Shown: piece after piece, positions 35,790-40,478 of the stretch
How the letters are laid out: every line of letters begins with the position of its first letter
How positions within the stretch are numbered: the stretch's first letter is position 1
DNA from: Trichodelitschia bisporula
Taxonomy: Eukaryota
Direction of reading: 5' to 3'
Length of the DNA: 64,000 nucleotides
Assembly (NCBI GenBank): GCA_010356995.1
Contig: ML996687.1
Span: 745,803-809,802, forward strand
Notes under the pieces: model-generated
Told to the model about the DNA's origin: nothing
The model's input: the letters and a program-made list of their open reading frames with translations, nothing else
Databases searched by the model: none
Translations under genes and position numbers: made by a program

Positions 35790-37464
35790 ATGGTGGTACA
35801 CCCTTCACGCCAGGCCTACGTTGAGGAGGCCGAGGCACAGGTTGGTACCCATCACCTACCCATCAGAGCCCACCAACTGACTTATCTGACTGTTCAGGAT
35901 ACGAATATGGGAGGGATCGACTTGGCAAATATTCGTTAGCATTCACCAGTGATCAATCTGGGAAGTGACTCGCTAAATATCTGCAGCTGTCGATCATGAC
36001 TACTACGTCGACTCCGGGTCCGGCGTGGCCCCCGAAAAGGCCTCCGCTATCCTCGCACAGTTCGAGCGCAAACGATTTGCCGCTGGCATAGCTGTACCTA
36101 CCGACGATGTGAAAGTCCGCGCTCGGTTACGGGATCTGGGTGAACCCATCACACTGTTCGGAGAAGACACAGCCGATCGGAGAGATCGTTTGCGCGAACT
36201 CTTGACCCGCCAGGCCGAAGGGGGCGAGGGAGGCGATGATGCCGAAATGGGGGGAACGAGCCAAGATCGAGGAGATGAAGGCGATGCCGAGGAAGAATAT
36301 TATACCCAGGGCAGCGATGCTCTTTTGGCAGCTCGAAAAGATATTGCGCGGTACTCCTTGCCCAAGGCACAACAGCGCATAGCATACCAAAAGGCGGAAT
36401 CTACTATCCCCTTGCGCACCCACGTCAAGTACCGGAAAGCCGTAAAGGAGCGTCTGCAAGGCTTTGACCTCTATGGATCGCAAATCGCCTCAGATAGACC
36501 TTTGGCAACTGTCCGGTTTTCGCCAAACGGTCAGCTGCTTGCCGTAGGCACCTGGGGAGGCACGGTAAAACTCCTCGACGTGCCAAATCTGGAGGAGAAG
36601 GCAATTCTTCGCGGTCACAACGACATTGTCAGCGGCATCGCTTGGGTTCCAGGGGCAACCATTCCAGAATCGGGCGTGTCCCCTGGCACTGTAAATCTGG
36701 CATCTGGTGGTGGCGAAGGGTCTGTCCATCTTTGGTCTCTGGAGCAAGATACACCACTTGCGACCCTTGTCGGGCATGACGGCCGTGTTGCACATGTAGA
36801 CATACATCCTTCACGTCGGTTCCTTGCCTCCGCATCTCACGACTCGACATGGAGATTATGGGATCTAGAAACACAGACGGAACTCTTACTGCAAGAAGGC
36901 CACTCGCGTGAGGCGCATTCAGTGTCTATCAATACAGATGGCTCTTTGCTGGCGTCAGGTGGATACGACAGCATTGGACGCATCTGGGATCTGCGTACTG
37001 GGCGCATGATCATGTACCTTGACTCTCATATCCAGCCTATCTACACATTGGCGTGGGGTGCAGATGGATACCGCGTCTTGTCAGGCTCAGGCGATGGTTT
37101 TGTCAAATGTTGGGATGTGCGCGCAATCAAGGAGACGGCAACGATTGGTGCACACAGTGGCGGCGTGACGGACATGGCATGGTTTCGCGGTACAGATGGT
37201 CCAGCGATGCAATCTGCCCCTCTCCGCGATGACGAGAAGGATGAATTCGTCCCCAAAAAGGCAGGGACATTCATGGTAAGTTGCGGGTTTAACAAGACGG
37301 TCAAGGTGTGGTCTGCGGATGAATGGGCGCCGGTCAAGACATTGACGGCGCACTCGTCGGTTGTTACTGGGGTGGATACCAGTGCAGACTCAAAGTGGAT
37401 CGCTAGCTGTGGCAGAGACCGGACCGTCAAACTGTGGGCCAGAGACGATGGAGAAGGCATATAA
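35790..37464 (+). CDS. PRP4: U4/U6 snRNP WD40 protein Prp4
   Basis: PTDDVKVRARLRDLGEPITLFGE..RRDRLR (Prp4/SFM motif), ARYSLPKA, WD40 repeats (LLLQEGHSR, GRIWDLRTGR); two short 5' introns. Confidence 0.94.
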
Positions 37465-37756
37465 TTTGTGTCTTAATAAATACCACCGAACCTTGCGAAC
37501 ATGTCCCCAAGCTAAACAGTTGTGTCGCGTAGACTTTGTAAATTTGTTAGCGGAGCGTGCAGAGGTAAGGCGACGAGGCCGTTCGTTCTAGCTCAAGGTC
37601 GAAGAAAGCATGTGGTCCAAGCTCCATGCCCCCTGTCCTGCCAAGAGTTCGGCAAAAATTCACAAGCACACTTAAGGTTTTGCAACTCCCAGGCTCTCTT
37701 TCCCTTCATCTTCGCGCATCAACAATCTCCACACTCTTCACCATCGGCCACCTGAG

Positions 37757-37926
37757 GTATGTGTACTGCCGCCACGATGGCTTCTCACCTTTCAGTGAGC
37801 CGGGGAGCGCAATCATCGCCTCGTGCTGTGATACGCACTTTCCTACGCAACAAAAGATGAAGAAACCTCCGTGTGCAGGTACTCTTCATCTAGGCTCCTG
37901 AAGGCTAACTCGACACCCATCTGTAG
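37757..37926 (+). other. 5'UTR intron of RPS22 containing a predicted three-way RNA junction
   Basis: GTATGT donor at 37757, CTAAC at 37905-37909, TAG at 37924-37926, 47 nt before the ATG; internal complementary stems. Confidence 0.7.
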
Positions 37927-37973
37927 ATACCTCATTTGCAAGGGCTTGCCACTGAGAATCTCTTAACGTCAAA

Positions 37974-38602
37974 ATGGTCCGCACCTCTGTCCTCAACGAT
38001 GCGCTTAATGCCATCAACAACGCCGAGAAGTCTGGCAAGCGTCAGGTGATGATCCGCCCTTCGTCGAAGGTCATCATCAAGTTCCTGTCGGTCATGCAGC
38101 GTCACGGTAAGCGGAGACATTTCATTTCTGCTTGCGTCTTTCCTTCCGGGTTGATAACTAGGTGGCGGTCTCGCATTTCTACGACCTTTGCCCTTTAAGT
38201 ATCCGGTACAGCACTTGCGAAGACCTTACACGTTCTCTGATTTTGATGAAGATGAACATTTAATCTTTGCGACATACTGACTCTTGAGGCAGGCTACATT
38301 GGCGAGTTCGAAGAGGTTGATGACCACCGCAACGGCAAGATCGTCATCCAGCTCAACGGCCGGTACGTTTGAGAAGTATTAGGTGGATTGGCATATGCTA
38401 ACATCGTTCCAGCCTGAACAAGACCGGTGTCATCAGCCCTCGCTACAACGTCCAGCTTAACGACTTGGAGAAGTGGGTTGTCAAGCTGCTGCCGTCGCGT
38501 CAGTTCGGATTCATCGTCCTGACTACCAGCGCTGGCATCATGGACCATGAGGAAGCCCGGAGAAAGCATGTCGCTGGCAAGATTCTGGGTTTCTTCTACT
38601 AG
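37974..38602 (+). CDS. RPS22: 40S ribosomal protein uS8 (S22/S15A)
   Basis: [64 protein letters not shown]; introns 38107-38292 and 38363-38412. Confidence 0.97.
38144..38277 (+). ncRNA. snR44: Intronic box H/ACA snoRNA, snR44 homolog
   Basis: Hairpin 1 closed by CCGG/CCGG with guide halves GAUAACU and UUUAA (complementary to 18S UUAAA-UC-AGUUAUC); H box ACAGCA at 38208-38213; second hairpin with CUUACA/UUUAA; ACA box at 38272-38274. Yeast snR44 is also hosted in an RPS22 intron. Confidence 0.8.
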
Positions 38603-39054
38603 GAGACGCTTGTGAATGGGGGTTTCAGGATTGGCAATGGCATCATGAATAGTGTGGATGGTTGTTACCGTCTTGACTGCGATCAGCCAAGAGCATCAAC
38701 TGTCAAATGTCAAACATGATTTCTCCCTGAAGCTATCTACACGTGAGACGGACACCAGATCTCGCAGTAATTCCCCAACGTGATCCATGCATGTTCCCAT
38801 ATTCCCTAAAATATCCATACTTCCCCCTATCCCCCGGATTGTATCCACTTCTTTCTCTCCCGCACTCCTACCCGTAGTAACCCTGGTCTGTACCTTTTGC
38901 TTGGCACCCTCATGCACAGCCAGGGCCCGTGACGACCTCCGCTGACGAAACCCCCCACCCGGCCACCGCAAGGCAGCTCGACGAGAACGTGTTTCCACAT
39001 CCTCACCTTTGCACGCCGCTGCCATCCGTTGCCACTGCCTTCTCCTCTGCTATA

Positions 39055-40478
39055 ATGTCGGAGCGGCCAATCGGTATAGCTCTGCCCCCCTCCAACCGCC
39101 TTTAGCTTTGCGCTCGAGCTAATCACTCTGGGGTAGTTCTCGATGGCGGAACGGGCTTCCTAAAGGCCGGTTACGCCGGCCAGGTACATATACTGTGATG
39201 TTAGCAAGACGGAGACATGCTTATACAGGGCAGAACTTTCCCGACCACCAGTACCCGTCAATTGTAGGGCGACCCATATTGCGGTCCGAGGAGCGCGATG
39301 GGGATATCGTCGTCAAAGATATCATGTGCGGTGACGATGCCGCGGCGGCGCGATCGATGCTGCAGATCACCTACCCCGTATGTGCCTTTCAATCATACCA
39401 ATAATCGGACCACATTGGTTAACAGCGGGTAGATGGAGAATGGCATTGTTAAGCGCTGGGACGACATGCAGCTGCTCTGGGACTACACCTTCTACGAAAA
39501 GATGCGCATCGACCCCACGGGACGCAAAATCCTCCTTACTGAGCCACCGATGAATCCCCTGAGGAACCGCGAACAAATGTGTGAGGTTATGTTCGAACGG
39601 TACGGCTTCGGCGGCGTCTACGTTGCTATCCAGGCCGTGTTGGCGCTCTACGCACAAGGCCTTAGCTCTGGTGTCGTGGTGGACTCGGGCGATGGAGTCA
39701 CCCACATCGTGCCCGTGTATGAATCTACAGTCCTCAACCACCTCACGCGGCGGCTGGACGTAGCTGGCCGACATGTGACGCGCAACTTGATCGCGTTGCT
39801 GTTGCGGCGCGGCTACGCCCTCAATCGTACAGCAGATTTTGAGACGGTGCGTCAGATTAAAGAGAAGCTGTGCTACGTATCCTACGACTTGGAGCTCGAC
39901 CAGCGTCTCAGCGAAGACACGACTGTGCTCGTTGAGTCGTACACTCTGCCGGATGGCCGCGTCATCCGCGTTGGAAGCGAGCGGTTTGAGGCACCTGAAT
40001 GCTTGTTCCAGCCGCACCTGGTGGATGTTGAGCAGCCGGGTATTGCCGAGTTCCTTTTCAACACGATCCAAGCGGCGGATGTCGATGTGCGGAGTAGCTT
40101 GTACAAGGCTATCGTGCTCAGCGGTGGTAGTAGCATGTACCCGGGGCTTCCGAGCCGTATGGAGAAGGAGCTGAAGCAGCTATGGCTCACCCGTGTGCTT
40201 CATGGAAACCCGGAGAGGCTGAATGTCCGTTCTCTTGTGATGCAGATGGCAATGCTGACGAGCTACAGAAATTCAAGGTGCGCATAGAAGATCCTCCTCG
40301 TCGGAGGCACATGGTGTTTCTGGGTGGCGCCGTGCTGGCCAACATCGTAAGTGGGCGTACGCCTCTGGATCCCAGGTCTAACACCGTCTAGATGGCGGAC
40401 AAGCACAACATGTGGATATCGAAGGATGAATGGGAAGAGCAGGGGCCGCGTGCGCTCGAGAAGCTAGGCCCAAGATGA
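39055..40478 (+). CDS. ARP2: Actin-related protein 2
   Basis: [73 protein letters not shown]; multi-exon. Confidence 0.96.

Follow-up and report, generated by a model that had tools for sequence, protein, structure and literature searches.

Why does the uS8 (RPS22) gene of Trichodelitschia bisporula carry a 170-nt intron ahead of its start codon, and does the RNA structure drawn in that intron serve the gene? The gene lies on the plus strand, as do all features described below unless stated otherwise, of a 64,000-nt stretch of contig ML996687.1 (hereafter the window; positions count from its first letter). Its coding region (37974–38602, ATG at 37974) consists of exons 37974–38106, 38293–38362, and 38413–38602, and Pfam Ribosomal_S8 matches the first and third of these. 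Most of the documented cases in which a eukaryotic ribosomal protein regulates itself through an intron of its own gene come from Saccharomyces cerevisiae. A preliminary description, made from the letters alone, had proposed that the leader intron folds into a three-way junction that serves either as a uS8-binding splicing switch or as a nuclease target, and had pointed to the uS8-binding junction of 18S rRNA for comparison. Our analysis bore out the intron, its splicing, and a conserved structure, and found in it loops that match the yeast regulatory core; the likeness to 18S rRNA and the nuclease target gained no support. We consider it likely, from sequence comparison and the argument developed below, that this leader is the Pezizomycotina version of the yeast uS8 (RPS22) splicing autoregulator.

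The leader intron (37757–37926) starts with GTATGT at 37757, contains the branch-point motif CTAAC (37905–37909, branch A at 37908), and ends in TAG, with the 3′ splice-site AG at 37925–37926; it lies entirely within the 5′ UTR. Splicing was assessed on contigs—not reads—of two public runs, X1 and X2, from one sample of one study, whose status as RNA is a guess and which we used as RNA evidence because they carry GT..AG joints. One X2 contig skips 170 nt (37754>37925, shorter side 31 nt) with GT..AG ends once the cut is moved by +2, and is thereby joined exactly at the predicted ends, 37757 and 37926. Contigs of X1/X2 join the coding exons in the same manner at 38105>38292 (186 nt skipped) and 38361>38412 (50 nt skipped), both with GT..AG ends. 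The leader intron had been called about three times as long as is typical, which is true against the 50-nt third intron, a comparison confined to the RPS22 gene. To place it among relatives, metagenome contigs were scanned with exon 1, and the best 80 of 180 confirmed fungal RPS22 loci were analysed. Nearly all of these 80 have a long leader intron, with lengths of 100–314 nt (5′ splice sites picked automatically, a few of the picks wrong). Two intronless, cDNA-like relatives (L017 and L022) join ...CACGAG|AUACCUCAG..., as predicted for the relative L012.

The unspliced form was also present. An X1 contig of 165 nt (37749–37912) runs uninterrupted from exon 1 across the 5′ splice site into the leader intron, at a depth of 973 versus 7,698 for the spliced coding contig of the same run, and no X1/X2 contig of this single sample lies inside either coding intron. 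These contigs give a weak hint that the leader intron is selectively retained. Three ATGs lie within it in the window, and at least one ATG was present in 63 of 64 leader introns from loci among the best 80 of 180.

Further downstream, the first coding intron (38107–38292) harbors an snR44-like H/ACA snoRNA at 38144–38277 (Rfam RF01262), which accounts for the intron's length of 186 nt. The copy in the window falls short of the gathering score of 33 (30.7 bits, E 8.5e-4); 15 of 19 related loci have RF01262 in the corresponding place with a score that reaches or exceeds gathering. According to the available text of Hooks 2016, snR44 is conserved in Saccharomycotina and Pezizomycotina. With a leader intron followed by an snR44 intron, the layout of the gene matches that of yeast RPS22B. 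Could the leader intron, like its neighbor, give rise to a stable, trans-acting non-coding RNA, whether of snoRNA type or of another, with the junction as its mature fold? The yeast 5′ UTR intron was in fact detected as ‘maintained’ after splicing (Hooks 2016, available text). Nevertheless, we judge this reading very improbable. Rfam has no family that matches the leader intron or hairpin P4 (see below) in a search of 37400–38800 with E up to 10, the best match on the intron being sR47 on the minus strand (12.4 bits, E 6.2); nothing reached gathering score on the leader intron in 20 sources, and reading of the sequence revealed neither C/D nor H/ACA boxes. Moreover, the sole intron-bearing contig includes exon 1 sequence and therefore represents unspliced RNA, not an excised product, and a trans-acting RNA leaves P4 unexplained.

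As to the surroundings of the gene, a protein with PRP4 (PF08799) and WD40 domains is encoded upstream (37464 being the last and 35977 the first position, plus strand), ends ~290 nt before the RPS22 leader intron, and looks by its domains like the U4/U6 snRNP splicing factor Prp4. Downstream, 39433–40287 (plus strand) encodes an actin-family domain (PF00022, E 7.5e-72), probably that of an actin-related protein with further exons upstream.

We then return to the fold of the leader intron. All coordinates given in the preliminary description agreed with the sequence, and the minimum free energy (MFE) structure computed by RNAfold for the 170 nt is the three-way junction that it had drawn: a closing helix (P1) of GAGCC (37797–37801) and GGCTC (37893–37897), a first hairpin (P2, 37802–37843), and a second (P3, 37855–37891) whose stem pairs AGATGAAGA (37855–37863) with TCTTCATCT (37883–37891) and is extended by ACCT (37865–37868) and AGGT (37877–37880). 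The MFE structure also lengthens the closing helix, pairing CCUUUCAG (37788–37795) with CUGAAGG (37898–37904). The 5′ strand of P1 (37788–37801) thus reads CCUUUCAG, U, GAGCC, and its 3′ strand (37893–37904) reads GGCUC followed by CUGAAGG; both are supported by the MFE fold and by covariation. So lengthened, the junction, which had been placed a few nucleotides before the branch point, ends directly at the base before CTAAC. Each hairpin of the MFE structure is interrupted by a small internal loop. In P2, A37811 stands opposite A37833-C37834 between the flanks GC/GC and AUCA/UGAU (strands GCAAUCA, 37809–37815, and UGAUACGC, 37829–37836), and in P3, A37864 stands opposite A37881-C37882 between AAGA/UCUU and ACCU/AGGU. 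At −53 kcal/mol (z −2.51), the fold is matched in stability by 1 of 200 dinucleotide shuffles, so that thermodynamics alone provides modest evidence; the evidential weight for the junction comes from conservation.

The leader introns of the related loci share a series of sequence blocks—CCUUCAG..AGCC, GCAAUC...GAUACGC, GAGCUGAAGAACCCU...AGGGCACUCUUUGCGCUC, and GGCU.CUGRAGG-CUAAC. A covariance model (R1; 140 positions, 39 pairs) was built by transferring the fold of one relative (L009) onto a MAFFT seed of 20 sequences, and was searched against the window and the best 80 of 180 loci (358 kb, both strands, E ≤ 1). R1 matched 66 of the 81 sources, once per source, on the plus strand only and always just upstream of the uS8 ATG. 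Full-length matches numbered 56 (E ≤ 5.2e-8), the window scored 74.3 bits (E 2e-16), and in related loci the match terminates with GGCTAAC or a close variant. Among the 15 sources in which R1 had no match are the two intronless cDNA-like contigs, two loci cut off upstream (L037, L043), four AT-rich or yeast-like loci (L055, L065, L066, L075), and seven loci with both intron and P4 in which R1 recognizes no junction (L002, L025, L026, L041, L042, L045, L071).

In the R1-derived alignment (54 distinct rows), 87.5% of cells were paired versus 76.5 ± 0.5% after shuffling, a value that none of 500 shuffles reached. Double changes occurred in 31 of the 39 junction pairs (22.1 when shuffled) and amounted to 225 cells (79.7 when shuffled), and sliding the partners by 1–3 columns left 42–53% of cells paired, at most 52.7%. 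Because this alignment is biased towards the structure of the model, we also counted the raw MAFFT seed, in which 84.9% of cells were paired versus 78.0% and double-change cells numbered 56 versus 26.2 (0 of 500 shuffles in either case). Both alignments show the junction conserved with compensatory changes: it is real and under selection as RNA. Most of the covariation sits in P2 (double changes in 14 of 14 pairs, helices 2 and 3), and P1 contributes 10 of 11 pairs with 86.5% of cells paired (helix 1; both counts from the R1-derived alignment), including a swap of CCUUCAG/CUGRAGG for CUCGCGA/UCGUGGG in L060 and L072. The core of P3 (AGA/UCU and CCC/GGG) is nearly invariant, with GCACUCU or GUACUCU in ~50 of 54 rows.

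RNAalifold was also run on the raw MAFFT seed and gave a poor consensus of 18 pairs, in which AGCC took as its partner the GGCU within GGCUAAC and not the one further upstream; this AGCC/GGCU(AAC) pairing may be a competing fold. A further observation concerns the relative L073, whose leader intron (~1596–1770) repeats the 3′ half of P3 several times in tandem (GGCAMUCUUCAUGCUCAAAG-like units), suggesting that the junction element can undergo local duplication.

The most widely conserved part of the leader is a hairpin that the preliminary description had missed and that lies mostly outside the intron. This hairpin, P4 (37925–37961; motif, covariation, and MFE), places the 3′ splice-site AG itself in its basal helix: the leader reads AG|AUACCUCA...UGAGAAUCU across the splice site, the layout is AG|AU-AC-CUCA ... 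UGAG-A-AUCU with A37929-C37930 opposite A37957, and in the MFE structure the AG at 37925–37926 is paired with CU at 37960–37961. The motif AGATACC-N10-40-AGAATCT occurs once in the window versus 0.01 expected, and in its exact form in 65 of the best 80 of 180 RPS22 loci versus none of 47 other loci. Variants in nine further loci are in part compensatory, such as AGGU/ACCU in L029 and AGU-AC-CUU.../...AAG-A-ACU in L068, L070, and L074. In the raw MAFFT alignment of 51 distinct sequences, 77.5% of P4 cells were paired versus 67.4% when shuffled (0 of 500), with 87 double-change cells versus 41.4. This covariation is mostly that of the apical stem; the basal pairs are almost invariant and therefore provide little evidence on their pairing. 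P4 is no more stable than its shuffles (−7.3 kcal/mol, z −0.27; matched by 61 of 200), as might be expected of a helix that depends on a protein for its stability. The last two nucleotides of exon 1 are AG in at least 56 of 64 sequences, so that P4 persists in the spliced mRNA. The cDNA-like contig L017 has the P4 motif twice (11–47 and 373–406), once before the ATG and once near the 5′ end, and the second motif may be an assembly artefact or a repeat.

What do these three hairpins have in common? All three have, in the window, a 1×2 internal loop, A opposite AC, beside an A-U pair: GC|A|AUCA / UGAU|AC|GC in P2, GA|A|ACCU / AGGU|AC|UC in P3, and GAG|A|AUCU / AGAU|AC|CUC in P4. Among the relatives, most rows with a P2 read GAUAC or GACAC on its 3′ strand, and P3 is mostly GGG-CAC-UCU opposite AGA-A-CCC. 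In our reading of the sequences, the three loops are one motif, A or AA opposite (Y)AC with flanks of the GAU/AUC type.

It is this motif that ties the leader to yeast. The 5′ UTR intron of S. cerevisiae RPS22B suffices for repression by Rps22 (Roy 2020, available text) and, according to the available text of Granas 2026 (PMC13232506), contains a conserved predicted structure required for regulation. It carries AAGAAUCAAAG and CUUUGAUACCA, whose ‘central stem’ is UCAA/UUGA (Supplementary Table 2, available part). Repression is lost when either strand of this stem is mutated and returns in the double mutant (12,152 induced versus 175,605 uninduced, compared with 16,116 versus 127,790 for the wild type); the ‘larger bulge’ ACCA that follows UUGAU is equally needed, as its deletion or permutation to CAAC or CACA abolishes regulation (induced/uninduced ~0.7–0.85 versus 0.126 for the wild type; Granas 2026, PMC13232506, available text). 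Set beside AAGAAUCAAAG / CUUUGAUACCA, P4 of the window reads GAGAAUCU / AGAUACCUC. The yeast core, AAUCAAAG / CUUUGAU-ACCA, has counterparts in GAUACC/AGAAUC of P4 and GAUACG/GCAAUC of P2, so that it and P4 are one module, to which P2 also conforms once its closing pair is flipped. What the two introns share, ...G-A-AUC... / ...GAU-AC-C..., is thus what yeast requires for Rps22-dependent repression. The authors of the yeast study drew ACCA as a one-sided bulge, and its equivalence to the A/AC loop is proposed here from the letters of the two strands.

The two systems are alike in gene family (uS8), in an intron that lies wholly in the 5′ UTR and is structured, and in the snR44 host intron that comes next; they differ in build. 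The yeast intron is 557 nt long with a 180-nt structure in its middle, known as the ‘Hooks structure’ and reported as conserved only in Saccharomycetaceae, whereas the introns of the Pezizomycotina type (100–314 nt) have a compact junction abutting the branch site and an extra module across the 3′ splice site, and their three-way architecture differs from what the yeast papers describe. The available text of Hooks 2016 gives the RPS22B 5′ UTR structure as conserved in ‘Saccharomycetaceae except L. lactis’, and that of a 2022 Nature paper on RPS22B gives the intron as conserved throughout Saccharomycetaceae. R1 finds no match in the AT-rich or yeast-like loci named above, so the architecture is not common to yeasts and only the loop module is. 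One of these loci, the yeast-like L055, has a TACTAAC branch site, a leader intron of 406 nt, and snR44 at 87 bits in the next intron, and its MFE structure contains a ~170-nt domain closed by UGG-A-AUCAGUA / UACUGAU-AC-CCA. The yeast leader also has AAGAUACCAC in exon 1, 12 nt before the 5′ splice site, and GUGGUAAGAUCU at the start of the intron (PMC13232506); judged by eye from the first 617 characters of the printed leader, which stop short of the 3′ end of the intron, these two could pair into a helix resembling P4 around the 5′ splice site. A literature search whose coverage left out most subscription journals returned no report on a Pezizomycotina RPS22 leader element, and the terms RPS22, S22, uS8, and S15a are absent from the main texts of Li & Breaker 2017 and of the 2021 ‘17 conserved structural RNAs in fungi’.

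A junction of this geometry may also be read as a constitutive splicing ‘zipper’ that shortens the distance between 5′ splice site and branch point and confers no protein-specific regulation. P1, which starts 31 nt past the 5′ splice site and reaches as far as the branch site, encloses ~117 of the 170 nt; a zipper stem is suspected in the yeast intron as well (Granas 2026, PMC13232506, available text). A zipper, however, needs pairing and not sequence, yet the unpaired loop nucleotides and the cores of P3 and P4 are nearly invariant; the matching loop in yeast is required for Rps22-dependent repression (same source); and P4 hides the 3′ splice site instead of exposing it. We therefore consider a mere zipper unlikely.

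Quite unlikely, too, is that the structure is the target of another factor—an Rnt1-like RNase III or a nuclear RNA-binding protein—that brings about degradation of the unspliced RNA or the excised intron independently of uS8. The precedent is the Rnt1 cut site in the conserved structure of the yeast intron, removal of which raises the mRNA ~4-fold (Danin-Kreiselman 2003, as cited in the available text of Granas 2026, PMC13232506). This AGNN/Rnt1 arm of yeast has no evident counterpart in introns of the window type: none of 53 predicted apical loops of P3 (the only apices examined) is an AGNN tetraloop, the Rnt1-type signal, so that the nuclease target put forward in the preliminary description gained no support. 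Apical loops vary in both sequence and length, and it is the internal loops that are conserved. Each of the three rival readings fits the invariant loops, the yeast mutant data, or P4 less well than does autoregulation by uS8.

How, then, might uS8 act through this leader? The structures with their covariation, the splice sites, the unspliced form, and the match of the loop module to the yeast core come from the data above; the binding of uS8, the direction of its effect, and the fate of the unspliced RNA we infer by analogy with yeast, and any mimicry of rRNA by the leader structure would likewise be supposition. The pre-mRNA would fold the intronic junction, with P1 ending at the branch site, together with a weak P4 whose basal helix takes in the 3′ splice-site AG. 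Whenever uS8 outnumbers the 40S subunits being assembled, its free molecules would bind the loops of P2, P3, and P4 and thereby stabilize both P1, right beside the branch site, and P4, with the AG concealed in it. So stabilized, the two helices would make the branch site and the 3′ splice site harder to use, with retention of the intron as the outcome. A retained intron carries upstream AUGs, and intron-retaining transcripts would therefore be unproductive. P4 would re-form in the spliced mRNA, possibly adding a translational layer.

A wider proposal we advance more tentatively, rating it somewhat short of even: the A/(Y)AC loop with GAU/AUC flanks may be the module by which uS8 is recognized in eukaryotes, one that predates the split between budding yeasts and Pezizomycotina and was tripled in the latter. 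There, the junction would clamp the branch site and P4 the 3′ splice site, and, with P4 in the mRNA, uS8 could repress translation too. If tripled in this way, the module would form a two-layer sensor of free uS8, acting on splicing and on translation. If it is common to yeast, the circuit would date back hundreds of millions of years and would not be a peculiarity of Saccharomycetaceae. For the yeast system, the authors state in the available text that they have no confident model of how Rps22 binds RPS22B (Granas 2026, PMC13232506); given a common module, the alignment of dozens of divergent fungal leaders would inform this problem, as it separates the invariant nucleotides (the loop and its flanks) from positions that need only pair.

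Several other yeast ribosomal protein genes are splicing autoregulators—RPL30, RPS14B, RPS9A/B, RPL7B, RPL18B, and RPL28 (Granas 2026, PMC13232506; Hooks 2016; available texts of both). There, as proposed here, splicing is inhibited when free protein in excess binds a structured part of its own pre-mRNA; the proteins and motifs are different. RPL30 acts at the 5′ splice site, unlike sites of the window type, which flank the branch point and cover the 3′ splice site. The leader would represent a compact element of ~200 nt that acts at the branch point and the 3′ splice site.

The bacterial ortholog offers a second comparison. S8 (uS8) binds helix 21 of E. coli 16S rRNA and an operator in the spc-operon mRNA. 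Here, too, the protein represses its own expression through an irregular helix, the difference being that the bacterial system is one of translational repression, not splicing control. The core of the bacterial site, which we take to be A595-A596-G597 / C643-U644 with the pair U598-A640, bulged U641-A642, and G597 paired with C643, was verified in its letters in the E. coli 16S sequence. The 3′ strand of P2, UGAUAC(U), is identical to E. coli 638–643(644), and its 5′ strand AA-UCA resembles AAGUCA at 595–600. This match of six to seven bases may be due to chance. Compared with E. coli 16S, the 5′ strand of the fungal motif has no counterpart of G597, and hence the G597-C643 pair cannot form; P2 matches the bacterial-type S8 site in its 3′ strand UGAUAC and departs from it in the 5′ strand. 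A functional likeness may still exist.

In fungal 18S rRNA, the corresponding stretch showed no likeness in the pieces compared. Fungal 18S pieces, which are contaminants in bacterial assemblies, contain no GAUAC at the stretch that matches E. coli 635–650 by its flanks, and the Rfam eukaryotic SSU consensus annotates no pairs at the helix 21/ES6 stretch. Elsewhere in one fungal-type 18S piece (L127, ~1135–1235), AGAUACC occurs in the apical loop of h24 and GAGAAAUC forms a two-pair GAAA mini-hairpin 83 nt apart from it; the two resemble the strands of P4 and are unpaired with each other in the Rfam consensus. Eukaryotic 18S rDNA pieces of this sort were met in many assemblies titled as bacteria or bacterial MAGs (L082–L127), and they look like contamination.
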